Virus record (IMG/VR): IMGVR_UViG_3300025676_000071
Coordinates: 1-25,406 of that record
DNA from: a virus
Taxonomy: Duplodnaviria; Caudoviricetes
Reading direction: 5' to 3' (one strand)
DNA: 25,406 nucleotides
Both the position numbers and the translations under genes were made by a program. The notes beneath the pieces are model-generated. The model saw nothing but the letters and a program-made list of their open reading frames with translations. It made no database searches and was not told where the DNA came from. Shown in pieces: positions 3,579 to 25,162 of the stretch; the stretch's first letter is position 1, and each line of letters starts with the position of its first letter.

Positions 3579-5915
3579 TTAAGTGATAATTAAATTTTCT
3601 TTGGAAAAAGCTTTCTGAAATCTGTCTGCTAGAGTAACCTCTTCTTCAGTAGAAGCTTCGCTATTATTGGGAAGAGCGCTTTTTTCTTCTTCCATGTTTT
3701 CCATGGCAGTTTCTACGGTAGCATCGGAATTCTCTACTTCTTTGTCGGAGGCAGTTCCAATTTGAGCCACGCGCTTTTCTACTTCAGCCTGGATCCGAGC
3801 ATCAAACTCTTCCTTCTTGGCCTGGATAAAATCTTTGTCCTTGTGTTGCCAAAAAACAGCAACCTTCTCTTGGTATTCAGCAAATGATTCATCCGAGAGA
3901 TCCAGCGCTCCAAGCTCTGAAGCCAGGAGTTCGCGATCTGCTTCTTCAAGCTCGTACATTTCATCCACGACACCCATGCGGGCATTAAAGGCTTCCTTGG
4001 CGTCTCGTTCTGCATTTTCAGCTACAAGAGCGGTAATTTTTTCTTCAGCAGCAGTAAGTTTTTCCTCTACTTCTGCAACCGTTTTCTTAAAGTTGTCTTG
4101 GGCTTCTTCAAGGTCTTTTTCTGCATTCGCCGCCTTTTCCTTTTCAGCGACATACTCGTCACTTCTTTGGCGGATAGCTTCTTCTACAACCTCTCCGATA
4201 CTTGCCACGGCTTCTTTTGAGAATTCTTTGGCGAAGTCATGTTCCTTAAGAGCTCGTTCTAGTTTTTCTAGGATTTCGTTTTCCATAGCTTTAGTTAAAT
4301 AGTTAGTTCGATTATAATTTACATTCTTTTCATCTACTTGTGAAATTTTATTTTCTAAGGTTTTTAAATTTTTAATAAAATTAGAGCTCTTTACGGTAAT
4401 AACCGTTGCACATGAATCCGGAGCTAAACACACCTCCGTCCTTACCTTTTCATCGTCTTCTTCGGGAGCAAGGGAAATTTCAGTGTCGACGTCTTCGACC
4501 CCTTTTCTTTGTGTTATAAGACCCTCCACATCCGCAGCGGGATTAGTAGTAAACCCTATTCCTAGTGGGTAAATATCTCCCACGACTAATCTATAAACCT
4601 TCGTACCGTCATCCATCTGGCCGGGACCTTCGTTGGCTCTCAGGTAGGTAGAAAGTTCCTCCACTTGCGCTGGATCGGTTACAACATCAGCCTCATCGAG
4701 ATTATCCGAACCTAATGCAATATGGTATTTGTTAAATCCTATTTCCCAGCTGGCGGATATCTTTTTTTCAAACTCCCCGTTATTATTTTCCAGTAAGTCA
4801 GCAAACCCCGGATGAACCGTTCTATATATAACAGCCGCACAAGCTATATTAAAAGGGCTGCGCAAATCCTTTACAGCTAAGTCTTCTAAAATTTGATTAT
4901 TGCCAAACCTACTAAAGGCGCTAGACACAATGTGACCCACGACTTTTTGCTTCTGATGTTCTATGTTTGCAGGCTTATTGACGAAGTAGTCTTTAATCGC
5001 CAAGGCCGTAGGAGTATCGATACCGTCATCATTGCGATTGAATTTATTAACTACTGCGGCATTAAAGGCAACGCCCAAGAGATCAATGTTTTTTTCAAAA
5101 TCAATATCTTTGGGAATAAGAGGGCGCAATTGTTGCAGAGACGCTTCACTAAGCTGCCACTCCCCGCTTTCAATCTTGCTGGTTGCAATAATTTGCTCTT
5201 GAAAACGAGTAGTATACTTATAGGGTAAGGAGGACATATTAGCACTAGAAGATTTAGGAGTTGTTTTAAAATACACTTTTTTTTGTAAAGAGGGTAAGAT
5301 ATAATTACGAACTAGCGCTTTGGCAAATTCATTATCACTAGGAAAATGCACTCCTTCTTTTATCCTCGCCAACGCAACACGCTCGGCTATTTCCATTAGA
5401 CCCTCTCTGTGATCCGGATTGTCTTGGGCCAATAACTCCGCCGCAAGATAAGCTTGAGTAGCATGACCGCTAGGGTAAGAGGGGGTTTTGGCGGTCCCCG
5501 AAAGGCCTGATTGTACATCTTTATTATAACTTAAACTAACCCCGTGGTAATCCGCCAGCTGATAAGGCCTTGGCCGGTTGTAGGCCTTCTTTAGCCTAAG
5601 TATTAGTGCTTTAGAATCATTAACTAGATCTTTTATTCGTTGCTTATCATAGCGCAACTGGTGCTCCTCGGCGTAAGCGAGTATTACTTTTACGAATTTC
5701 TTATCAAGCTTTTCCCTCTCGCTTTCAGGAAACTCAGCATTATCTACTACTTGAGCAATATACTCCAACTCTCCACGAACCTCTAGGGAGCTGTTCAGTG
5801 GAGGGCTTGCATAATCTATATCCCCAACATCTAGAGGAATAAGTTTACTGGGAGCCTTAGAGGTCTCTTCCGCTTTCGTCGACAACTCCCCAAACTGGAG
5901 GTCATCAATATGCAT
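3579..5915 (-). CDS. PAP2-superfamily phosphatase/haloperoxidase domain fused to a putative prohead protease + coiled-coil scaffold, about 778 aa
   Basis: PAP2 motifs KKAYNRPRP, SYPSGH, ARIKEGVHFPSD; the central domain has H...SWEIGF...GIGFTTNPAA (protease-like); acidic coiled-coil C-terminus. Start moved to ATG 5915, adjacent to the upstream stop; internal ATG at 5237. Confidence 0.7.
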   Translation of the reverse strand: MHIDDLQFGELSTKAEETSKAPSKLIPLDVGDIDYASPPLNSSLEVRGELEYIAQVVDNAEFPESEREKLDKKFVKVILAYAEEHQLRYDKQRIKDLVNDSKALILRLKKAYNRPRPYQLADYHGVSLSYNKDVQSGLSGTAKTPSYPSGHATQAYLAAELLAQDNPDHREGLMEIAERVALARIKEGVHFPSDNEFAKALVRNYILPSLQKKVYFKTTPKSSSANMSSLPYKYTTRFQEQIIATSKIESGEWQLSEASLQQLRPLIPKDIDFEKNIDLLGVAFNAAVVNKFNRNDDGIDTPTALAIKDYFVNKPANIEHQKQKVVGHIVSSAFSRFGNNQILEDLAVKDLRSPFNIACAAVIYRTVHPGFADLLENNNGEFEKKISASWEIGFNKYHIALGSDNLDEADVVTDPAQVEELSTYLRANEGPGQMDDGTKVYRLVVGDIYPLGIGFTTNPAADVEGLITQRKGVEDVDTEISLAPEEDDEKVRTEVCLAPDSCATVITVKSSNFIKNLKTLENKISQVDEKNVNYNRTNYLTKAMENEILEKLERALKEHDFAKEFSKEAVASIGEVVEEAIRQRSDEYVAEKEKAANAEKDLEEAQDNFKKTVAEVEEKLTAAEEKITALVAENAERDAKEAFNARMGVVDEMYELEEADRELLASELGALDLSDESFAEYQEKVAVFWQHKDKDFIQAKKEEFDARIQAEVEKRVAQIGTASDKEVENSDATVETAMENMEEEKSALPNNSEASTEEEVTLADRFQKAFSKENLIIT

Positions 5916-5916
5916 T

Positions 5917-6741
5917 TTACTTCTCGCCCCAGTCTTTTGGTAGAGATCCTTCACAGCCCAGCTTTTTAGCTCTCGCCTTAAGCTTGCTCTTGAAGCTTGC
6001 AAAACTCATATCGCCCTTATACATACCCCATGTACTGACGGCGGCTTTTACATTTTTGCAAGATACGACTGGAAAGGACCTCCGCGCTGGATCCAAAAAG
6101 TCACTATCCTTGAGCTTGCTTCTTTTTTCCCCGCCAAAACGTTCGGCTGCATGATGCCAGTATTCACTGTAGTCTGACCCCTTAGCCTTCTTGTCTTTTT
6201 TTTCGTCCTTCTCGTCTTCCTTTTCGTCCTTCTTTAAATCCTTAACTTGCTTCTTGTCATCTTTTACCGCATCTTTTTCATGATCTTCCTTTTCCTTTTT
6301 GTCATCGTCCTTGAGCTCTTTCTTGTCCTTATTTAGCCATGGAGGCATCTCGCCCTTTTTAGCCTTCGTCATCGCCTTAGAATCTTTGACTTTATTTTCC
6401 TTGTCAAAGCGCTCGTCCTTCTTGAGGTCATGCTCTTCGACCTGTTTCTTTTCTGTCTGTTTGCCCTTCTTGTCTTTCTTGATTCGGGACTGGTCGTCCT
6501 TGACGGCATCCTTCTCGTGCTCTTCCTTTTCCTTCTTGTCGTCCTTCTTAAGTTCTTTCTTGTCAATTTGGTCCCATTCCTTTTTAGTTTTTGCGTGCTT
6601 TACAAGAGCTTCGCTGTACTCTTCACGGTGGGGGGCAGGAACCTTTTCCCAGTCAACGGTGTTGACGATTTCTACCTCAGTGGTGGAACCGTCAATTTTT
6701 ACTTTGCTAATTAATGGTTGATTTATAATATTGTCTTTCAT
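5917..6741 (-). CDS. Highly charged K/D/E-rich protein with a C-terminal RSKLKDSDF...RRSFPV domain (resembles DUF6582, from memory)
   Basis: ORF track; ATG at 6741 preferred to GTG at 6768; internal 24-aa duplication. Confidence 0.7.
   Translation of the reverse strand: MKDNIINQPLISKVKIDGSTTEVEIVNTVDWEKVPAPHREEYSEALVKHAKTKKEWDQIDKKELKKDDKKEKEEHEKDAVKDDQSRIKKDKKGKQTEKKQVEEHDLKKDERFDKENKVKDSKAMTKAKKGEMPPWLNKDKKELKDDDKKEKEDHEKDAVKDDKKQVKDLKKDEKEDEKDEKKDKKAKGSDYSEYWHHAAERFGGEKRSKLKDSDFLDPARRSFPVVSCKNVKAAVSTWGMYKGDMSFASFKSKLKARAKKLGCEGSLPKDWGEK
6256..6564 (-). repeat. Intragenic 72-bp duplication (6256-6327 and 6493-6564)
   Basis: DKKELKKDDKKEKEEHEKDAVKDD versus DKKELKDDDKKEKEDHEKDAVKDD. Confidence 0.85.
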
Positions 6742-17968: not shown

Positions 17969-18177
17969 GGTGCGTTTGTGTTCAGCTGGGATATGTGGTG
18001 CGCTTGTGTTCATCTGGTGCGTTTGTGCAAAACGCTTGCGTAAGTGCTTGACTATCAAGGACTTGGGCGGCGCCGGCAGGGCCCGAGGTGCAAGTCGTTG
18101 ATACTCAACAAGTTACGCCTTAAAGGGGGTGTGTTTAAGTTCGTCTGGTGCGTTTGTGTTTAAATGGTGCGTTTGCG
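17969..18177 (+). repeat. GGTGCGTTTGTGTT direct repeats
   Basis: Copies at 17969, 17997, 18016, 18147 and 18166 (degenerate at 18128). Confidence 0.85.
18042..18114. repeat. Paired-palindrome element 1
   Basis: AAGTGCTTGA-cta-TCAAGGACTT / 27-bp GC-rich linker / AAGTCGTTGA-tac-TCAACAAGTT; centres 18053 and 18103. Confidence 0.95.
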
Positions 18178-18179
18178 TA

Positions 18180-18211
18180 CAAAAAAACCCCCTGAGTCAT
18201 CAGGAGGTTTT
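18180..18211 (-). terminator. Intrinsic terminator
   Basis: Minus strand AAAACCTCCTGA-tgac-TCAGGGGGTTTTTTT. Confidence 0.75.
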
Positions 18212-18284
18212 GGTTGGAAAATGTTTTTTAGGTTATAGACTTATAAACTGCAATCGTTGCGACTAATATAATAATTTCCATTTT

Positions 18285-18638
18285 TCACCAGTTGCTTGGC
18301 ATTGTGCCGTGGTCAAGAAATTGTTCTGCCTCACGAACCGAGCAACGCATATCATCGCAAATGTCCGCGAGCTTTTCGTCTCGTGCTTCCAGAGCGGATT
18401 GACGATGGCGAGCGACCTTGCAAAATCTTGGGTCGCCTTGAGCAATTGCCATTTCCTTGAGCTGGGCAAACAAATCCCAAGAAACGAGATCTTGCTTGCA
18501 AAAGTTAAAAGCACATTGCTTGCGGGAAACGCCTTCGGTTTCCAAAATGCACCGAGCTTTTTTGTCGTTGCGTAGGCTTAAACTTGCTTTGATCAGTTTT
18601 TCTGATACTTTCGAGAATGTGATAAATAATAATTCCAT
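18285..18638 (-). CDS. Hypothetical protein, 117 aa
   Basis: ORF track; A-rich leader; followed by a terminator. Confidence 0.7.
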   Translation of the reverse strand: MELLFITFSKVSEKLIKASLSLRNDKKARCILETEGVSRKQCAFNFCKQDLVSWDLFAQLKEMAIAQGDPRFCKVARHRQSALEARDEKLADICDDMRCSVREAEQFLDHGTMPSNW

Positions 18639-18663
18639 AATGTTTTTTGTGTTCTTTCTGTTT

Positions 18664-18924
18664 TTACTTGGTTGTTTCAGTCTTTACAATACTGGCAAGC
18701 CTATCGTTGGCAAGGTGAAAAATGTTTTCTAAACGCTCGGCAACTTGCTCTGCAAAGAGTTTTGCGAATACGCCATCTGAAGCCATTTTTGAATTTGCGA
18801 GATTGTGCATCGGCTCAACAGCCTCGATGATGTCCCGAAGGGATTGGGCAGTTCTAAAAGTCTCCGAATCAGTTTTCCCGATCAGAGGCATGAGAGATGT
18901 TTTTTCTTTTCTAATTGTTATCAT
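18664..18924 (-). CDS. Hypothetical protein MITIRKEK..., 86 aa (leaderless)
   Basis: Start reassigned to ATG 18924, 6 nt below the -10. Confidence 0.75.
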   Translation of the reverse strand: MITIRKEKTSLMPLIGKTDSETFRTAQSLRDIIEAVEPMHNLANSKMASDGVFAKLFAEQVAERLENIFHLANDRLASIVKTETTK

Positions 18925-18930
18925 ACTATA

Positions 18931-18959
18931 AATATAGACCCGAAATGGCATAAAGTCAA
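18931..18959 (-). promoter_or_regulatory. sigma70-type promoter, class A
   Basis: TTGACT-N17-TATATT-N6-ATG. Confidence 0.85.
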
Positions 18960-19040
18960 GCGATTTGGCAAAAATAATTCAACTTTTGTTTGTGCACAAT
19001 TCTCCTGCGTTTGGTTGCATTAAACACAAATGGTGCAAGT

Positions 19041-19099
19041 GGTGCGTTTGTGTTCGTGTGGGGTATGTGGTGAGTTTGTGTTCAAGTGGTGAGTTTGTG
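19041..19099 (+). repeat. GGTG(C/A)GTTTGTG direct repeats
   Basis: Copies at 19041, 19069 and 19088; same spacing as 17969/17997/18016. Confidence 0.85.
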
Positions 19100-19113
19100 C
19101 AAAATGCTTACGC

Positions 19114-19186
19114 AAGTGCTTGACTATCAAGGACTTGGGCGGCGCCGGCAGCGCCCGTCCCCCAAGTAGTTGACTATCAACTACTT
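19114..19186. repeat. Paired-palindrome element 2
   Basis: AAGTGCTTGA-cta-TCAAGGACTT / 27 bp / perfect AAGTAGTTGA-cta-TCAACTACTT; centres 19125 and 19175. Confidence 0.95.
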
Positions 19187-19299
19187 ACGAAGCGAATCCA
19201 GTCCATTAGCACGATGCTCACGATGTATAAGCTGACCGAATACGCAACCGCATTGATGGGGTTGGCGTACTTCTCAAGATAGTATTGAAATGATTTCAT
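19177..19299 (-). CDS. Tiny hydrophobic peptide, 40 aa
   Basis: Hand-translated MKSFQYYLEKYANPINAVAYSVSLYIVSIVLMDWIRFVSS; TGA stop inside the palindrome. Confidence 0.55.
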   Translation of the reverse strand: MKSFQYYLEKYANPINAVAYSVSLYIVSIVLMDWIRFVSS

Positions 19300-19334
19300 T
19301 GTGTTTTTTGTGTTTTTGTGGTGAGATTATGTTT

Positions 19335-19505
19335 TTACCAAGCGTAAGAATGCTTGTGGTAAAGTCGTTTGTGGTCAATGCTGTAAACCGCACTTGCGAA
19401 ATAACAGGAATCCGCAAGGGCTTTCGCTGTTTCAAATTTCCAAAAGAATTTGCCTTCGCAAATAAACTTGGCTCGGCAAAGGTGTTTTAAGAAAAAGTGT
19501 TTCAT
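19335..19505 (-). CDS. Small hypothetical protein, 56 aa
   Basis: Hand-translated MKHFFLKHLCRAKFICEGKFFWKF...; 4 nt after the upstream stop. Confidence 0.55.
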   Translation of the reverse strand: MKHFFLKHLCRAKFICEGKFFWKFETAKALADSCYFASAVYSIDHKRLYHKHSYAW

Positions 19506-19509
19506 GGTC

Positions 19510-19686
19510 TTACCCTAAAGCAACTGCAAGAAACTTGGAGCGGTTAAACCCTGCGTTGAATTTCTCAAACTCATTCGCAAGGTCAACGGCGATTTGCTCA
19601 ATCTCTCGACTGGCGGATTCGTCAACTGCTGAGTTGAAGCGGTGAAAAAGTGCGTTGGCAATAGCGGTAAAATGTTTTCTTGTCAT
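19510..19686 (-). CDS. Small phage protein MTRKHF...FNRSKFL, 58 aa
   Basis: MTRKHF-x-x-IA...N-x-x-F-x-x-x-(R/K)FL pattern recalled from uncharacterised phage proteins; start at ATG 19686. Confidence 0.75.
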   Translation of the reverse strand: MTRKHFTAIANALFHRFNSAVDESASREIEQIAVDLANEFEKFNAGFNRSKFLAVALG

Positions 19687-19752
19687 AATGTTTTTTTTAG
19701 GTTGTGATGGTTTTGAATAAAAGTAAAATTGCAAATAAAATTATCGCTTCCA

Positions 19753-20049
19753 TTACTCGAAAATGCCTCGCATTTCTTCGCTTACTGCGTCCATGTCAAC
19801 GAGGTTTTCGTCTTGGTCAAAATCTTCCTCCTCTTTGTCGTTCTCGACTGCATCTAGGGAAACGAACTCTTGCTCGATTTCTTGCTTGGAAGCGTTTTGC
19901 ACGCCATGCTCGACAACGAGCTTTTCGGCGAGTGCCTCGCTTTTGAGGTTCTCGACCAGTCCCTTAAACTGGGAAGGAACGGCGTTGCCGTTGGCGTTAG
20001 CCAATGCGATTGCTTGGCGAATGTGGTTGAAGTCTTTCTCAATTATCAT
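19753..20049 (-). CDS. Acidic hypothetical protein, 98 aa (paralog of 21963-22190)
   Basis: ATG 6 nt below a class B promoter; shared C-terminus DFDxDENxxDMxxVSxxMRGxF. Confidence 0.8.
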   Translation of the reverse strand: MIIEKDFNHIRQAIALANANGNAVPSQFKGLVENLKSEALAEKLVVEHGVQNASKQEIEQEFVSLDAVENDKEEEDFDQDENLVDMDAVSEEMRGIFE

Positions 20050-20055
20050 AACTAC

Positions 20056-20083
20056 ATAATGACAGAATTTGACTAAACCGCAA
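20056..20083 (-). promoter_or_regulatory. Promoter, class B
   Basis: TTGCGG-N16-CATTAT with TGT before the -10, N6-ATG. Confidence 0.7.
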
Positions 20084-20116
20084 ACTAATTCGCATGGAGT
20101 AGCGCGTTTTGTTCAT

Positions 20117-20139
20117 AAGTGCCTGACTGTCAGAAAGAT
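20117..20139. repeat. Solitary degenerate palindrome box
   Basis: AAGTGCCTGA-ctg-TCAGAAAGAT. Confidence 0.55.
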
Positions 20140-20293
20140 AAAAATATTCTTTTTTCTGATCTTTTTTTCAAAACTTCGGAGCTTTTTGCATTCTCGACTT
20201 TTTTTGTGGCACAACTCTTTGACGCTCAATGGGTTACGCTAAAAAAATCCCTTCTAAAAACAGATTGGCACGCCATCTGTACGCCGCTTTTGT

Positions 20294-20366
20294 AACTTGT
20301 TGCCCGTCAAGGACTTGCGCCTCCGGCGCAGGGGCCGGTCCGCAAGTCGTTGATAACCAACGGCTT
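20294..20366. repeat. Paired-palindrome element 3
   Basis: AACTTGTTGC-ccg-TCAAGGACTT / 27 bp / AAGTCGTTGA-taa-CCAACGGCTT; centres 20305 and 20355. Confidence 0.95.
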
Positions 20367-20450
20367 AGGGAGGAGGTGGTGAGATTGTGTTTTTTTGGTG
20401 AGATTGTGCTTATTTGATGTTATTGGGTATTTCCATGTGCTGGGGCGCGC

Positions 20451-20473
20451 AAGTCATTGATATACAGTAACTT
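20451..20473. repeat. Solitary palindrome box
   Basis: AAGTCATTGA-tat-ACAGTAACTT. Confidence 0.7.
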
Positions 20474-20555
20474 AGAGAACTAAGTTAACTACAGCTATTA
20501 GCACACAAAAAATTACAAAAATTACAAAAAACATTATTTGCCCTATTAGATTACT

Positions 20556-20777
20556 TTATGCTTGTAATTCAAATACTCCTTGATCTGGTGATAGTCCAAG
20601 TTCCTCGGTTATCTCGATAAGCCTATTCTCATTTGCCATGACGCAATCCACGGAGACAATGCGATCATTGGGCTTAGTTCTATATAGTGGATTATGCTTA
20701 TTCATAAAGACGGGTCGCCCGTCCATAGTGGTAAGCACATAGGGATTTGATTTTTGCAACTCCTCTGTGATTTTCAT
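20556..20777 (-). CDS. Small hypothetical protein, 73 aa
   Basis: ORF track; 4 nt after the upstream stop. Confidence 0.7.
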   Translation of the reverse strand: MKITEELQKSNPYVLTTMDGRPVFMNKHNPLYRTKPNDRIVSVDCVMANENRLIEITEELGLSPDQGVFELQA

Positions 20778-20781
20778 TACT

Positions 20782-20934
20782 CTATTGTACCTTTATAAGT
20801 CGGAAACGACGAACTCCCGTAGCGTGAGCAAAGCGAGACTTTATAAGCCTATCTGCTTTGGGTAGCGGAAGCGGAAGGGATTCAGTCACCCAGACTGCTC
20901 CCGCTTTGTTGAGAATGCTTTGTAGTATATACAT
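20782..20934 (-). CDS. Small hypothetical protein MYILQS..., 50 aa
   Basis: Start reassigned to ATG 20934 after an A-rich leader, removing the overlap. Confidence 0.6.
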   Translation of the reverse strand: MYILQSILNKAGAVWVTESLPLPLPKADRLIKSRFAHATGVRRFRLIKVQ

Positions 20935-20951
20935 AGTTTGTGTTTTTTTGG

Positions 20952-21230
20952 TTAGCTTGAATGGTTCAAGGGTTTTTCGATTGCAGGAATTAAATTCCAT
21001 GCAGGGTGACCCTTTGGGACTTTAGCAGACTGGACACCGAAGTCCCGAAAGGTAATGTCTACCACATCCCAAACATCGGAGACTTGAGCCATCCATTGGT
21101 CTTTTGTTGGTGCATCGACTTGATAGGGTAAAGTCTGGTAAGTGCCGAGCTTGTCACCATTGGTGAGCGTCATGTCAATGCGAGCTTGACGGAAGTTAAT
21201 ATAGGGAATGTTCTTTTTAATCTTAATCAT
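20952..21230 (-). CDS. Hypothetical protein, 92 aa (leaderless)
   Basis: ATG 6 nt below the -10. Confidence 0.75.
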   Translation of the reverse strand: MIKIKKNIPYINFRQARIDMTLTNGDKLGTYQTLPYQVDAPTKDQWMAQVSDVWDVVDITFRDFGVQSAKVPKGHPAWNLIPAIEKPLNHSS

Positions 21231-21236
21231 GGTTTA

Positions 21237-21265
21237 ATTCTCTCAAATTTTGGATGAAATGTCAA
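21237..21265 (-). promoter_or_regulatory. sigma70-type promoter, class A
   Basis: TTGACA-N17-GAGAAT-N6-ATG. Confidence 0.8.
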
Positions 21266-21426
21266 CCCCTAATTACAATCCAATCGGACTGCATATCTGC
21301 CACGAAATCGTCAGCGTCTGCTTGAGACGGAGCAGAAATCGTAGCGAATTGTGGTTTGCCCGTCACACGATGGACTGCCACGACATTGAAGTTGAGAAGC
21401 GGAAGGAGTTCTATTGAATGTGTCAT
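21262..21426 (-). CDS. Small hypothetical protein MTHSIELL..., 54 aa (leaderless)
   Basis: Start reassigned to ATG 21426. Confidence 0.7.
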   Translation of the reverse strand: MTHSIELLPLLNFNVVAVHRVTGKPQFATISAPSQADADDFVADMQSDWIVIRG

Positions 21427-21432
21427 GTAATA

Positions 21433-21461
21433 AAGATACGCCCATTTGCCCACAAAGTCAA
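21433..21461 (-). promoter_or_regulatory. sigma70-type promoter, class A
   Basis: TTGACT-N17-TATCTT-N6-ATG. Confidence 0.8.
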
Positions 21462-21518
21462 GCCTACAGAGCAAAAAAATAAAAAAGATTTGGCACGCTA
21501 TCTGTACCCCGCATTTGT

Positions 21519-21591
21519 AACTTGTTGTCTGTCAAGGACTTGCGCCTCCGGCGCAGGGCCCGGCCCACAAGTCGTTGATAGATAACGACTT
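21519..21591. repeat. Paired-palindrome element 4
   Basis: AACTTGTTGT-ctg-TCAAGGACTT / 27 bp / AAGTCGTTGA-tag-ATAACGACTT; centres 21530 and 21580. Confidence 0.95.
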
Positions 21592-21603
21592 ACAGAGGTA
21601 AAA

Positions 21604-21687
21604 TCAGGATAAGGCAAACTGAATGTTCATTATAAGCTGGACGAATAGCAAAACCGCTATTGCATAAAGAATGTATTTATTTTTCAT
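21604..21687 (-). CDS. Tiny hydrophobic peptide, 27 aa
   Basis: Hand-translated MKNKYILYAIAVLLFVQLIMNIQFALS. Confidence 0.55.
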   Translation of the reverse strand: MKNKYILYAIAVLLFVQLIMNIQFALS

Positions 21688-21710
21688 TATTTGGTTATTT
21701 TGTGTTTTTT

Positions 21711-21911
21711 CTAAAGTTCCTCGGTTGACATGATGAATCCGTCAACATCAACATTTTGGATTTTTTCCTTTTTAGCTAGTTTTTTTGCGATTCTCATTGC
21801 CCTTGCTTTTCCCTTTACTTCGTCAATAACATCAAAGAAGCCCAAAGCGTCTGTGAAAACAATTTGAAACCATTGTGGAAAGTTTGCGTTTTTTGCGATT
21901 TTAATAATCAT
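21711..21911 (-). CDS. Small hypothetical protein, 66 aa
   Basis: ORF track; TATATT 7 nt upstream of the ATG. Confidence 0.75.
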   Translation of the reverse strand: MIIKIAKNANFPQWFQIVFTDALGFFDVIDEVKGKARAMRIAKKLAKKEKIQNVDVDGFIMSTEEL

Positions 21912-21962
21912 TTGTAATAATATAGTAAATTGCTAGAATTGAGAGGAATATAATAATCTCCA

Positions 21963-22190
21963 TTATGCAAACGCCCCACGCATTTGGGGCGAAACATTTT
22001 CCATGTCCGTTTCGTTTTCGTCATTATCGAAATCGACTTTTCCCTCATGGTCGAGAGCGTCAAGATGGTCTGCTTCATCACGAACATCTTCTTGCGTTGG
22101 CGGTAAAAGCTCTTCAATGAAAGCACCTTGTTGAGCAAGGACTGCTTGGTGAGCTTGGCGAATGAGTTCTATTCTTTCTGATTGTGTCAT
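21963..22190 (-). CDS. Acidic hypothetical protein, 75 aa (paralog of 19753-20049; leaderless)
   Basis: ATG 6 nt below the -10; shared C-terminal motif. Confidence 0.8.
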   Translation of the reverse strand: MTQSERIELIRQAHQAVLAQQGAFIEELLPPTQEDVRDEADHLDALDHEGKVDFDNDENETDMENVSPQMRGAFA

Positions 22191-22196
22191 AATATA

Positions 22197-22225
22197 AATC
22201 TAGTCGAGTTTAAGGAAAATGTCAA
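22197..22225 (-). promoter_or_regulatory. sigma70-type promoter, class A
   Basis: TTGACA-N17-TAGATT-N6-ATG; -10 to ATG identical to the 17646 promoter. Confidence 0.85.
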
Positions 22226-22250
22226 GTTTTATGTGAACCTTTTTCTCTCT

Positions 22251-22355
22251 CCCTTTCGGGTTGTAGGCGTGTGCTGACGCCTCGTTGTTCGATGCATTGG
22301 ATGGTCTTACGAATGCCTTATACGGACTTACATCTGCCATTCTTCGCAATGCATC
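22251..22355 (-). ncRNA. Candidate structured RNA downstream of the tRNA-like element
   Basis: GATGCATTG/CAATGCATC 9-bp stem, GGCGT-N6-ACGCC hairpin, CCC-GAAA-GGG GNRA hairpin. Confidence 0.45.
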
Positions 22356-22367
22356 TACAGAAAAAGC

Positions 22368-22490
22368 AGGGCTTAGAGGGAATTGAACCCCCATCTCTCG
22401 CTTATCTCCACAGTTGATCAAACCGCCCACTACTTTATCTAGAATTTCGTGGTGAAGGAGGGCGAGGCTTTACCATTAAGCTATAAGCCC
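22368..22490 (-). tRNA. tRNA-like RNA (123 nt) with an insert of about 50 nt in the anticodon arm; anticodon not assignable
   Basis: Acceptor GGGCTTA/TAAGCCC; D-arm TA-GCTT-AATGGTA-AAGC; anticodon stem CTCGC/GCGAG; T-arm GGGGG-TTCAATT-CCCTC; no encoded CCA. Confidence 0.75.
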
Positions 22491-22516
22491 ACAATAAATT
22501 TTAAAGAACAGACTCC

Positions 22517-22544
22517 ATTATGACACCTCCTGCCAGAAGTGCAA
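22517..22544 (-). promoter_or_regulatory. Promoter, class B, driving the tRNA-like RNA
   Basis: TTGCAC-N16-CATAAT with TGT before the -10; no ATG at +1. Confidence 0.75.
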
Positions 22545-22576
22545 GATAAAAAATGCCCATTTAGGAAAATAGTTAT

Positions 22577-22649
22577 AACTCGCTGGCTGTCAAGGACTTG
22601 CGCCTCCGGCGCAGGGCCCGGCCCACAAGTCGTTGATGTTTAAGGACTT
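22577..22649. repeat. Paired-palindrome element 5
   Basis: AACTCGCTGG-ctg-TCAAGGACTT / 27 bp / AAGTCGTTGA-tgt-TTAAGGACTT; centres 22588 and 22638. Confidence 0.95.
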
Positions 22650-22681
22650 ACAACGGAATTGGCGTGCCAAAATCAAGACAC

Positions 22682-22713
22682 AAAAAACCCCCACCTTTCC
22701 GAAGGGTGGGGGT
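22682..22713 (-). terminator. Intrinsic terminator
   Basis: ACCCCCACC...TTCG...GGTGGGGGT followed by a T-run on the minus strand. Confidence 0.85.
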
Positions 22714-22729
22714 CTATTTGAACTTCAAC

Positions 22730-22801
22730 CTAACCGCAAAATACTATTGAGTACATTATCACCCAAGGCAGAAGGATAAGTAAATCCCAATACTCACTCA
22801 C
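22730..22801 (-). CDS. Tiny hydrophobic peptide, 23 aa
   Basis: Hand-translated from GTG: MSEYWDLLILLPWVIMYSIVFCG; overlaps the upstream stop by 8 nt. Confidence 0.4.
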   Translation of the reverse strand: MSEYWDLLILLPWVIMYSIVFCG

Positions 22802-23048
22802 CTAATGCCCCTTCTATTACTGGACGAGCAACGAGATTACGAACGGCATAACCGCTCTTTCCGTATTGCTTGCCACGCACGACTGACTTAAAGGTACGAC
22901 TTGAAAAGTCATAATAAGCCGAGACGGCAGAACCTGCCTTGTTTATATAAGTGAACCAAAGCTTTTCGCCTACTCGCTCAACACCTTGAGGTTCGTACTT
23001 GGCAACTGCGAGTGCCTTGTCTGTTATGAATGAGAACATTGATTGCAT
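22794..23048 (-). CDS. Hypothetical protein, 84 aa
   Basis: ORF track; AGAGG RBS-like sequence upstream. Confidence 0.75.
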   Translation of the reverse strand: MQSMFSFITDKALAVAKYEPQGVERVGEKLWFTYINKAGSAVSAYYDFSSRTFKSVVRGKQYGKSGYAVRNLVARPVIEGALGE

Positions 23049-23069
23049 TGTTTTTTTCCTCTGTTTAGT

Positions 23070-23297
23070 TTATAGTTCAGTAAGTAATTCGTCAAGACGC
23101 TCAACATCAAGAGCGGAGTCATTATAGGCAACCCTATCGGGGGTTTCGGTATATCCGACTTCTCGCATGGCATCAACAAAAACTTGATAGCTTCCGCATT
23201 CTTTTGCGAACTCGTACATCCCTTCATCGTTGCCTATCCACAAGGCGACATTCCAAGTTGCGTGGTTTTTCCATCCGTTGTAAGTGGTATCAGTCAT
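23070..23297 (-). CDS. Small phage protein of the YNGW-x-N-x-x-TWNVALW type, 75 aa
   Basis: YNGWKNHATWNVALWIGNDEG...ETPD motif recalled from uncharacterised aquatic phage proteins. Confidence 0.8.
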   Translation of the reverse strand: MTDTTYNGWKNHATWNVALWIGNDEGMYEFAKECGSYQVFVDAMREVGYTETPDRVAYNDSALDVERLDELLTEL

Positions 23298-23451
23298 TGT
23301 TCTTGCCTATGGTATAAGGTGAGTGGTGGAGAAGTCGGTCAATCTTCTGTTCGAGAATCCTAACCGCTTGAACGCATTTCTCAAGAGTCATGGCAGGAGA
23401 GATTTTCGTGCCGTTCTTGAGAACGATATAGTTGTTTAATTGAGTATCCAT
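23290..23451 (-). CDS. Small hypothetical protein, 53 aa (leaderless)
   Basis: Hand-translated MDTQLNNYIVLKNGTKISPAMTLEKCVQAVRILEQKIDRLL...; ATG 6 nt below the -10. Confidence 0.65.
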   Translation of the reverse strand: MDTQLNNYIVLKNGTKISPAMTLEKCVQAVRILEQKIDRLLHHSPYTIGKNND

Positions 23452-23457
23452 TTTAGT

Positions 23458-23486
23458 ATTCTCCCAAATTATGCCTGATTTGTCAA
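23458..23486 (-). promoter_or_regulatory. sigma70-type promoter, class A
   Basis: TTGACA-N17-GAGAAT-N6-ATG. Confidence 0.8.
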
Positions 23487-23825
23487 CCCTAATTCGTTGT
23501 TTTTTTCATCTCTTCCAATATAGAGATTGGCAATGAATTGTGCCCGAAAGTCTCCTTGAAGGTTAGCCATAAGCTCGGTTAGTTGCTCCTCGGTTTGGTG
23601 TCCTAGAACATCATCGTATGTCGCGAGGGGAATCATGTTGTCATTATGGAAAACGGCAACTTCATAAGTGCCTTCCGAAACATTTCCATAGAGTCCGCTT
23701 CCCTCTCCTATGTTGGAGACGACGGAAATCTCCGTGTTGTTGCCCAAGTCGAGCTTGGCTTGAACGCCATTCGGGTGGTTGGCGTGTGAGTTGAAAACTA
23801 AGTCATTGAAGTTTTTGATTGTCAT
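23469..23825 (-). CDS. Hypothetical protein MTIKNFNDLVF..., 118 aa (leaderless)
   Basis: Start reassigned to ATG 23825; ISVV...YG...YEVAV...DDVLG pattern recalled from phage proteins. Confidence 0.8.
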   Translation of the reverse strand: MTIKNFNDLVFNSHANHPNGVQAKLDLGNNTEISVVSNIGEGSGLYGNVSEGTYEVAVFHNDNMIPLATYDDVLGHQTEEQLTELMANLQGDFRAQFIANLYIGRDEKNNELGLTNQA

Positions 23826-23831
23826 AACTAT

Positions 23832-23859
23832 ATAGTGACAGAATTTGAGCATAACGCAA
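23832..23859 (-). promoter_or_regulatory. Promoter, class B
   Basis: TTGCGT-N16-CACTAT with TGT before the -10, N6-ATG; near-copy of 20047-20083. Confidence 0.7.
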
Positions 23860-23890
23860 GCTTTTTCTTTGCTAATGCAAAAATAGTCCT

Positions 23891-23963
23891 AAATCGTTGA
23901 CTGTCAACGACTTGGGGGCCGGCGCCAGCGCCGGCTGTGCAACTCCTTGATTCTCAAGGACTT
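23891..23963. repeat. Paired-palindrome element 6
   Basis: AAATCGTTGA-ctg-TCAACGACTT / 27 bp / AACTCCTTGA-ttc-TCAAGGACTT; centres 23902 and 23952. Confidence 0.95.
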
Positions 23964-24078
23964 ACAAAACCTCTACCCACCAATAACCTTCTGACTCTGT
24001 GACGATGGTGTCCCAGCCATTTTGCCCTTTCTGATAAGCAAAAGTCCTGGCGGCGTGTTCGTATACAAACTTATACAT
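23962..24078 (-). CDS. Tiny protein, 38 aa
   Basis: Hand-translated MYKFVYEHAARTFAYQKGQNGWDTIVTESEGYWWVEVL; AGGAGG upstream, TAATG coupling, TAA overlaps the palindrome edge. Confidence 0.6.
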   Translation of the reverse strand: MYKFVYEHAARTFAYQKGQNGWDTIVTESEGYWWVEVL

Positions 24079-24506
24079 TATATGTTTCCTCCTAATCCAA
24101 GTCGTTCCTTCATGCTCGTTAAGTCATTAAGAATATCAAGCAAGATGTCCTCGGCAGATTCAAGAGAATACGGAGGCGTACCATACAAGATATTATTGCG
24201 AACTATTTGCTCGATCTCTCCTAGAATGTTAAGTTGCTCCTCACTCCTCTCATAGTCTCCGTCGGGATTGGAATATCTTTCCAAAAAAGAACTCCAGTCG
24301 TTTTGAGCTTTCATGTGACGCTCGGCATTCTCTAGATTGCGTTGCTCAAAGCGATGTTCCATGATTTCATCCATTGTAACCACAGGCTTTTCTTCGTCAA
24401 GTAGTGTTTTATTGAATCTTGCCTCTTCTAATTTTTCCTCAGCGAATTCCCTTTTCAACTCGGCGTATTCCCTGGCGTCTTGTTCGTTTTCTGCGTAACT
24501 GCTCAT
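24078..24506 (-). CDS. Acidic helical hypothetical protein, 142 aa
   Basis: ORF track; 3 nt after the upstream stop. Confidence 0.8.
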   Translation of the reverse strand: MSSYAENEQDAREYAELKREFAEEKLEEARFNKTLLDEEKPVVTMDEIMEHRFEQRNLENAERHMKAQNDWSSFLERYSNPDGDYERSEEQLNILGEIEQIVRNNILYGTPPYSLESAEDILLDILNDLTSMKERLGLGGNI

Positions 24507-24509
24507 AGT

Positions 24510-24740
24510 TTATAATCCTTGATTTTCGTAATAGTTAAGTGTGCGTTGCCATTCCTCCTCATAAGCCTCGTAGTCTTCGCCAAATCCTGCTTCTTGCACT
24601 CTGTGCATATACTCATAATGCTCTTGCTCGGATTGTGCGAACATCTCTAAGTCCCGAATCTCGGAAGCGTAGCGTTCTCGTACATCATCGTACTGAGCCC
24701 CGAATACATGGTCTGCGTGTTCTCTTGCTGTATCAAACAT
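24510..24740 (-). CDS. Very acidic Tyr/Glu-rich protein, 76 aa
   Basis: ORF track; 4 nt after the upstream stop. Confidence 0.75.
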   Translation of the reverse strand: MFDTAREHADHVFGAQYDDVRERYASEIRDLEMFAQSEQEHYEYMHRVQEAGFGEDYEAYEEEWQRTLNYYENQGL

Positions 24741-24744
24741 AATT

Positions 24745-24951
24745 TTAGAATCTTAGGTTTTTGAGTGATGTGTTTTTCTTGAGCCATCTGCGGAGTGGAT
24801 GAAATGCTTTGGCTGAGAAGTGAGCAAGATACTGCTGTCCGTTCTTGGCGAGAATCATGTGACCACTTGCCGTTGCTCGAATCTCCTCGATGTCGGGACA
24901 TTTCTTCAGTTGTTTCATTACTTTTCGATTACCGCTTTCTGAATGTTTCAT
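24745..24951 (-). CDS. Small basic protein, possible HicA-like fold, 68 aa (leaderless)
   Basis: Start reassigned to ATG 24951; helix-EIRATASGHMIL-KNG-YLAH-helix layout. Confidence 0.6.
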   Translation of the reverse strand: MKHSESGNRKVMKQLKKCPDIEEIRATASGHMILAKNGQQYLAHFSAKAFHPLRRWLKKNTSLKNLRF

Positions 24952-24957
24952 GGTTCC

Positions 24958-24985
24958 AGTATGACAGACTGGGCATGGAATGCAA
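24958..24985 (-). promoter_or_regulatory. Promoter, class B
   Basis: TTGCAT-N16-CATACT with TGT before the -10, N6-ATG. Confidence 0.75.
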
Positions 24986-25016
24986 CAAAAAAAAAGACCA
25001 ATTAGAAGATAGTCAT

Positions 25017-25089
25017 AACTCGTTGTCTTACAACAAGTTGGGAGGCGGCTCCTGGCGCCCGCGCCCAAGTCGTTGACTGAGAGGGACTT
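25017..25089. repeat. Paired-palindrome element 7
   Basis: AACTCGTTGT-ctt-ACAACAAGTT / 27 bp / AAGTCGTTGA-ctg-AGAGGGACTT; centres 25028 and 25078. Confidence 0.95.
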
Positions 25090-25162
25090 ACGCCGGCCAG
25101 AACCAGACCACAAGAAACAAAATCACAAACGGCAACGCAATAGCTGTTATTAGTTCAAACAT
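25088..25162 (-). CDS. Tiny hydrophobic peptide, 24 aa
   Basis: Hand-translated MFELITAIALPFVILFLVVWFWPA; TAA overlaps the palindrome edge. Confidence 0.6.
   Translation of the reverse strand: MFELITAIALPFVILFLVVWFWPA

Follow-up and report, generated by a model that had tools for sequence, protein, structure and literature searches.

A conserved two-part phage RNA with a tRNA-shaped body and a folded 3' domain

A tRNA-like gene whose anticodon loop is replaced by a branched insert raises the question of whether its transcript is a tRNA that has yet to be spliced, a mimic of a tRNA, or the remnant of one. Such an element lies in the stretch of viral DNA analyzed here (the window, 25,406 nt), and an earlier note on this DNA had suggested either a spliced tRNA or a tRNA mimic acting as a decoy. 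We find that the element is the 5' part of a real, conserved, two-part phage RNA that has no Rfam family beyond that of its tRNA body. The features of the locus are collected in Table 1.

Table 1. Features of the RNA locus and its upstream context (window coordinates)
Feature	Position	Strand	Remarks
Module-boundary repeat (family D1)	22566..22653		one of 7 copies at 17-25 kb; upstream context, outside the RNA
Promoter-like site	22517..22544	minus	TTGCAC, 16 nt, CATAAT; putative, from sequence and position in homolog leaders
Leader	22491..22516	minus	last bases and G1 complementary to end of 3' domain (4 bp here)
tRNA-shaped body	22368..22490	minus	acceptor 22490-22484/22375-22369; D arm 22481-22467; T arm 22392-22376; U73 at 22368
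Branched anticodon-arm domain	22397..22466	minus	outer stem 22466-22462/22401-22397; inner helix 22460-22457/22409-22406; two hairpins
Hairpin 1	22427..22452	minus	loop hexamer UCUAGA, self-complementary, 22443-22438
Hairpin 2	22410..22426	minus	5-bp stem, 7-nt anticodon-loop-like loop; self-complementary UGAUCA 22420-22415
3' domain (tail)	22232..22367	minus	folded, conserved
P1	22366-22359/22246-22239	minus	closing stem; GUA next
P3	22355-22291	minus	variable hairpin
GAACAACG	22290-22283	minus	between P3 and P4
P4	22282-22277/22270-22265	minus	variable loop 22276-22271; then ACAA
P5	22260-22251	minus	variable hairpin; then AGAG; tail end 22238-22232
Predicted knot Ta	22274..22369	minus	P4 loop 22276-22274 with C72, U73, G+1 (22369-22367)
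Predicted knot Tb	22237..22272	minus	P4 loop end 22272-22271 with 22238-22237 behind P1

Genomic setting of the element

The 25.4-kb virus record encodes a terminase, PhoH, a sigma-70-like gene, and a nucleotide-sugar dehydratase. From approximately 17 kb onward it carries small genes divided by an 88-nt repeat, the seven copies of which lie at 18031-25093 with a spacing of about 1.1 to 1.3 kb; related phages carry the repeat too. Beside the capsid-like genes, an 807-amino-acid ORF (3579-6002, minus strand) joins an N-terminal PAP2 domain to a charged C-terminus, an unusual fusion. At least half of the sampled words were present in 19 of the 24 sequencing runs listed, which were mostly marine or seawater metagenomes and of which nine are possible sources of this DNA. 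RNA run X20 covers only positions 23023-23234 of the window, and RNA run X24 covers none of it.

The tRNA-shaped element follows one copy of the repeat (22566-22653). It had been described as the first cargo of a module with a promoter of its own. A promoter-like TTGCAC-16-CATAAT sequence occupies 22544-22517, and the consensus promoter scan did not flag that site. TTGAC/TTGCG...CATAAT-like sites occupied the same position in the homologs (12 leaders inspected). The leader string at 22496-22512 (minus strand) is also conserved among homolog leaders, and we take it to resemble boxA.

The body retains the tRNA shape but not the anticodon

The element was confirmed on the minus strand with its exact ends and with intact acceptor, D, and T arms. 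Rfam model RF00005 matched it at 50.2 bits (E value of 3.4e-8) while passing over some 60 nt of the anticodon arm, and ARAGORN at default settings found no gene for it. The minimum free energy (MFE) fold comprised an acceptor stem of 7 bp, a D stem of 4 bp, and a T stem of 5 bp, then CUCGC/GCGAG, CUCC/GGAG, and two hairpins, which reproduces the branched arrangement proposed earlier (CTCC/GGAG enclosing the hairpins CCAC/GTGG and GCGGTT/AACTGT). The three arms and the conserved tertiary core are thus those of an RF00005 tRNA; the 5-bp stem with a 7-nt anticodon loop, U33, and a purine at position 37 is absent, and the 60-nt branched insert takes its place. Nucleotide 26 is missing in the 5-bp stem register, CUCGC/GCGAG coming straight after the D stem. 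CCA is not encoded at the 3' end of the element, where position 73 is U, and ACCA was found at positions 73 to 76 in one of 52 bodies of the family. A tmRNA carries a tag and G3-U70; the 60-nt insert, the G3-C70 pair, and the presence of a D stem bear out the earlier view that the element is too short for a group I intron or a tmRNA, and neither was called on it by Rfam or by ARAGORN at default settings.

Since the folding z-score of the body was weak (-1.4), folding energy alone proves nothing. In a hand-chosen set of 22 sequences (the window and 21 of the 35 main-subgroup candidates), 98.2% of 504 cells were paired, versus 74.4% after shuffling, and slid partners reached at most 51%. Position pair 15:48 of the tertiary core was Watson-Crick in 38 of 43 bodies (AU 14, GC 11, UA 8, CG 5; shuffle 12), L284, whose body call is doubtful, being excluded from this count and from the excision and leader-tail counts below. 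The family uses all four combinations at 15:48, whereas AU or GC occupied it in 166 of the 204 normal phage tRNAs parsed. Acceptor-end sequences and N73 vary freely across the family, indicating that no synthetase identity is kept. As judged from these patterns of covariation, the tRNA L-shape is under selection and decoding is not selected; with no anticodon retained, the term "tRNA mimic" is borne out as far as form is concerned.

A T-arm/acceptor pattern was matched 4 times in viral and 51 times in metagenome sequences. Among these 55, the 123-nt form occurred in 14 loci, 8 of them identical and 6 falling into four variants. The variants are islands of 89 to 97% identity within related phages whose flanks are unalignable, and the insert core is almost invariant among them; changes on both sides affected 2 of the 35 predicted pairs (in the anticodon-position stem and the T stem). 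The variants in L238 and L246 follow a normal tRNA-Asp. A second conserved block just downstream of the variants proved to be part of the 3' domain described below. The weak z-scores of the body and the 3' domain (-1.4 and -1.8) and the missing nucleotide 26 would suit a decayed tRNA with a random insertion, the outcome that the earlier note had held against its own proposal. Decay is contradicted by the covariation, with compensatory changes throughout, by a conserved island in unrelated flanks, and by the 62 distinct copies of the family, and we consider it exceedingly improbable.

The insert is probably not spliced out

We then considered a pre-tRNA from which the insert is removed, a fate also proposed for tRNA introns of Lak phages, either by a cut resembling an archaeal bulge-helix-bulge (BHB) at 37/38, which would yield Arg-CCU, or so as to give an Ile-GAU product. 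ARAGORN with introns allowed did return calls, namely, Arg(CCU) in five of the six variant loci, Val(GAC) in L237, and, with a relaxed score, Ile(GAU) in the window, and phage tRNAs often carry a short insert next to an intact anticodon loop; but the calls disagree on the anticodon. Exhaustive single excisions produced no canonical anticodon arm for the window, L224, or L237, so the spliced tRNA of the earlier note is not supported. Across the family, a single excision gave some canonical product in 16 of 45 members, with no anticodon common to them. The string GAT-AA-GCGAG, which had been likened to tRNA-Ile(GAU), is present in the window, but its GAU is replaced by GAC in L237 and is lacking from L259, L272, and L306.

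In the register that includes nucleotide 26, CUCC forms positions 32 to 35, so that anticodon bases 34 and 35 lie inside the central helix. The likeness to archaeal BHB introns is that a 4-bp helix holds positions 32 to 35 with single-stranded stretches 3' to it on both strands, and the BHB motif, according to the available text of the source, requires two 3-nt bulges (PMC4090602). The helix and the 3'-side bulges that had prompted the comparison are real, but the bulges are 4 nt each in the window, measure 4 and 3 nt in L259, L272, and L306, and are absent in most members. After a cut of this kind, the loop would be 9 nt long in the window and 8 nt in L259, and the spliced RNA would carry U37 and oppose C31 to A39 as a mismatch.

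The 55 pattern matches included no insert-free allele of this body. In run X19, two variant contigs retained the whole insert (among the differences listed), and no joint across the insert was seen in four runs, only two of which cover the insert, neither on record as RNA. The RtcB-type ligase that would go with splicing was found in none of 11 related phage records, nor was a tRNA endonuclease (PF01974), 8 of these records being less than 90% complete and host enzymes, ligases included, lying outside the search. An Rnl2-type ligase was present in 3 of the 11, none of them G001 to G004, G010, or G011. The element is probably unspliced, and we regard the pre-tRNA as very unlikely.

Two loops of the insert are self-complementary

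The loops of both hairpins contain self-complementary hexamers, which the earlier reading had overlooked. In the 22 sequences, the self-pairs of the hairpin 1 hexamer were AU 11, UA 9, and CG 1 and UA 20 and AU 2, and those of the hairpin 2 hexamer were GC 17, AU 4, and GU 1 and AU 20, GC 1, and GU 1. The adjacent central positions of the hexamers covary, changing from UA to AU, and because these bases are adjacent they cannot pair within one molecule. Kissing between molecules is therefore the likely and simplest reading of the covarying palindromes. In a modeled dimer, two molecules joined through UCUAGA of loop 1 (-85.0 versus 2 x -37.6 kcal/mol).

In 23 insert clusters, 42 self-complementary hexamers were counted versus 26.3 after shuffling, and 17 hexamer palindromes lay in predicted hairpin loops versus 3.6; a palindrome was missing in 2 of the 23 clusters and lay in an MFE loop for only 10. 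The control, 46 clusters of insert-bearing tRNAs without a tail, had 39 hexamers versus 52.8, with 14 in loops versus 7.5, and thus also exceeded the shuffles for loop palindromes.

Hairpin 2 could instead act in a monomeric decoy that imitates an anticodon stem-loop and absorbs host anticodon nucleases, the palindromes being incidental. Its 5-bp stem and 7-nt Y-U-G-A-U-C-A loop, present in most of the main subgroup, would suit such a role, as would the location of the gene among the small genes of the module region. However, the triplet shifts to AGC, CGC, GUA, or UAA while self-complementarity is mostly retained, position 37 is a pyrimidine, and loop 1 and the 3' domain are left unexplained, which makes this decoy unlikely. 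The loop of hairpin 2 presumably resembles a U-turn.

A second conserved domain follows the body

Directly behind the body, at 22232-22367, lies a second conserved RNA domain (the tail), also overlooked in the earlier reading, which is the most conserved part of the element. It is ordered P1, GUA, P3, GAACAACG, P4, ACAA, P5, AGAG, and tail end. P1 encloses the domain in full, with a four-way junction inside it, and the core amounts to about 70 nt. Where the search pattern left the letters free, GAGAG was conserved in 39 of 42 cases; for the P4 sequence, the figure was 44 of 48. The folding z-score was weak (-1.8), and Rfam gave no family for the domain at an E value of ≤1 in the window, 14 family loci, and L396. 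L305, which has a body of another subtype, shares the long P3 hairpin of the window tail (22291-22355) letter for letter, and close variants have a short hairpin in the place of P3, suggesting that modules are exchanged between phages.

Two pseudoknots are predicted, both starting from the P4 loop. Since the sequences are related, the shuffle contrasts that follow are inflated and the shuffle counts are not probabilities. For Ta, 69 of 81 cells were paired versus 50.1 after shuffling (0 of 5,000 shuffles), with GC, AU, and UA at +1 and UA, AU, and GC at 73; for Tb, 49 of 54 were paired versus 38.2 (0 of 5,000). For L259, L274, L298, L305, L285, and L378, the automatic register was off by one and was left uncorrected in these counts. 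When the parse was run without its bonus for tRNA-end spacing, the counts were 72 of 81 and 51 of 54, with the same register in nearly all rows. In 19 noncoding copies collected later and sorted by eye, the Ta complement was present in 18 (shuffle, 9.4; 0 of 5,000) and the Tb complement in 14 (shuffle, 9.9; 159 of 5,000), and eleven chance matches in coding DNA showed no excess (6 versus 5.9). A subgroup with longer loops (L261, L266, L271, L289, L303, L315, L323, and L377) had only one or two of the three Ta pairs. In the isolated Tetrasphaera phage TJE1 both knots are present in different letters (GGG/CCC for Tb).

The tail end is also complementary to the leader and G1. A perfect 5-bp match was found in 25 of 42 combinations (shuffle mean, 9.4; maximum, 18) in the versions TTGTG/CACAA, TTATG/CATAA, and TTACG/CGTAA, and the window has 4 of the 5 pairs. 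This pairing was strong only with a flexible offset, being weak at a fixed one (109 of 185 versus 101.9).

Distribution of the body and the tail

Patterns built on the tail core, which thus fixed part of it in the family collected, gave overlapping sets of 57, 71, and 91 viral stretches. They also matched 17 genome contigs, of which 9 resemble chance matches in coding DNA. Among 62 distinct tail copies parsed, a T arm lay ahead at a fixed spacing in 58, a spacing that the parse favored, and a full tRNA body in 52. The anticodon region was enlarged in 51 of these bodies (48 to 161 nt versus 23) and normal in one, L344, where the tail stands behind a normal tRNA-Phe. In L250, L396, and L404 the tail has no tRNA body, and in L449 (653-788, minus strand) and L478 the core hairpin of the tail replaces the anticodon arm inside a tRNA-like scaffold. 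The tail is thus not specific to the insert-bearing body. The copy in L396 (1480-1570) is that of TJE1 (HQ225832, about 37770-37860), a shorter tail in an unannotated stretch with no tRNA ahead. A distant member on a metagenome contig (L200, 1190-1440, minus strand) has a longer insert, a UGAUCA loop, and a variant tail core. Copies in assembled genomes of unrelated taxa (L378, L379, L381, L384, and L389 to L392) probably reflect phage contigs in bins.

Other searches returned little. When the body was compared by BLAST with 50,697 phage records, four short matches resulted, none above 20% coverage. Two patterns based on the Ile-like string recovered nothing but copies of the same phage, and among 71 loci of PhoH relatives, none contained a variant of the element. 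No protein family lay beside all copies within flanks of 0.6 to 1.5 kb, the largest accompanying 13 loci.

Insert-bearing tRNAs of other kinds are common in phages and heterogeneous, with 60 distinct single scaffolds among 120 matches. Many have inserts of 35 to 60 nt in the 5' strand of the anticodon stem, followed by an intact anticodon loop and no tail (for example, L003, L005, L006, L023, L026, L043, L065, L079, L090, L093, and L097); ACAGCAA, GGTTA, and GTTCCTA are common to these inserts, which appear to be true intron candidates. A local tail profile detected no tail behind other insert-bearing tRNAs in L001 to L249 at an E value below 0.01 (best, L031; E value of 0.1), indicating that such tRNAs do not generally carry the tail.

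Proposed mechanism and its main rival

We tentatively propose, with nearly even confidence, that the body is a non-decoding tRNA scaffold, likely oligomerizing through its loops, and that the tail is likely a 3'-processing ribozyme. The module promoter would drive a precursor of about 280 nt. The 5' part, as its covariation shows, keeps the L-shape without an anticodon or synthetase identity; RNase P may trim the leader, and the tRNA shape may confer stability. The loop hexamers, which by their covariation change letters while remaining self-complementary, would kiss between molecules to form dimers, rings, or chains. The central loop of the tail is predicted from covariation to pair both with nucleotides 72, 73, and +1 and with those that follow P1; a further pairing, of the tail end with the leader and G1, is predicted likewise for the main marine subgroup. 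The tRNA end would then be docked on a conserved junction that may cleave at or near the discriminator, a role with a precedent in the theta ribozymes, which, in the available text of their description, cut at the 3' ends of phage tRNAs (PMC10879173). Most speculatively, the oligomer could serve early in infection as a multivalent decoy for host tRNA-binding proteins.

The main rival, which we rate as rather unlikely, is that body and tail stay joined as a noncoding RNA of about 260 nt, in which the loops oligomerize and the tail is a noncatalytic cap or a protein binder; as a cap, it would keep the tRNA end from being trimmed, extended by CCA, or charged. C72, N73, and G1, exactly the nucleotides that 3'-processing enzymes need, are covered by the knots, the invariant P4 sequence would suit protein binding as well as catalysis, and the leader-tail helix would close the whole RNA. 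GOLLD RNAs can also embed a tRNA, and the available text of the source proposes that they protect it from maturation (PMC12990946). On the other hand, the tail also occurs behind the normal tRNA-Phe of L344 and behind tRNA-free hairpins, which suits a portable processing element, and no family of partner proteins accompanies all copies in the short flanks searched. A bolder form of our preferred reading, in which the tail is a new class of self-cleaving ribozyme with a guide loop on the last bases of the tRNA and the scaffold polymerizes into cages or condensates that sequester host defense enzymes targeting tRNA, is also rather unlikely.

Comparison with known RNAs

No HDV-type match was found in Rfam at an E value of ≤1, nor any match to twister, twister-sister, pistol, hatchet, or hammerhead ribozymes, in the window, 14 family loci, and L396. 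The consensus motifs of the latter five classes do not occur in the tail, and its P4 loop, which is variable and pairs outside P1, was counted against all five. The closest parallel in position is with the theta ribozymes, which, as far as the available text describes them, are likewise small structured RNAs right behind the discriminator of phage tRNAs (58 of 62 copies here), mostly with G at +1 and with two pseudoknots (PMC10879173). In contrast to these, P1 here closes the whole domain, one knot reaches tRNA nucleotides 72 and 73, and the nested double pseudoknot P1-P4 with the catalytic C first in J4/2, as defined in that text, does not occur; the partners here are mostly non-decoding tRNA bodies, and the tail is a predicted ribozyme only.

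The "enigmatic" tRNA introns of Lak megaphages also concern overlong phage tRNAs with conserved inserts that tRNA-finding programs label introns, and for a Lak tRNA-Thr the available text aligns alleles with and without the insert (PMC6784885, 10.1101/356790). The present family differs in having no insert-free allele, no canonical product, and a 3' domain attached. From archaeal BHB introns, as the same partial source cited above presents them, it differs in its unconserved 4-nt bulges, and no endonuclease was found in the 11 related records, most of them incomplete.

GOLLD and ROOL are phage- and tRNA-associated noncoding RNAs of unknown function that form oligomers through kissing loops; in the available text their solved structures measure 550 to 830 nt, whereas the present element is about 260 nt, is built on a tRNA body, and has only predicted oligomers (PMC12990946). 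Their Rfam models matched neither the window nor the family loci. T4 RNAC and RNAD are, in the available parts of the sources, stable RNAs of 119 to 139 nt in a tRNA cluster, with unknown function (NC_000866, PMC9697503). RNAC ends in a T-arm-like hairpin, but by eye neither RNA has a standard D arm or such a tail, and T4 was absent from the BLAST matches to either body or tail. No description of the RNA was found in the literature searched, which largely excluded subscription journals. Six supplementary files of PMC10690425 held no motif match; its files 1, 2, and 4, outside that search, may include the RNA among 10,006 candidates.

Implications for phage tRNA-like RNAs

Few classes of small self-cleaving ribozymes are known in nature, and the tail is a compact candidate with a covariation-supported fold and a predicted docking site, for which the copy in the isolated phage TJE1 offers a ready test system. 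As a natural tRNA scaffold that displays self-pairing loops, the body would be far smaller than the oligomeric RNAs known so far. Calls of "intron-containing" phage tRNAs can be non-decoding RNAs, and they need caution because ARAGORN gives three different anticodons for near-identical copies of this element. The family also offers a way to address by experiment a long-standing question, the function of the tRNA-like stable RNAs of phages.
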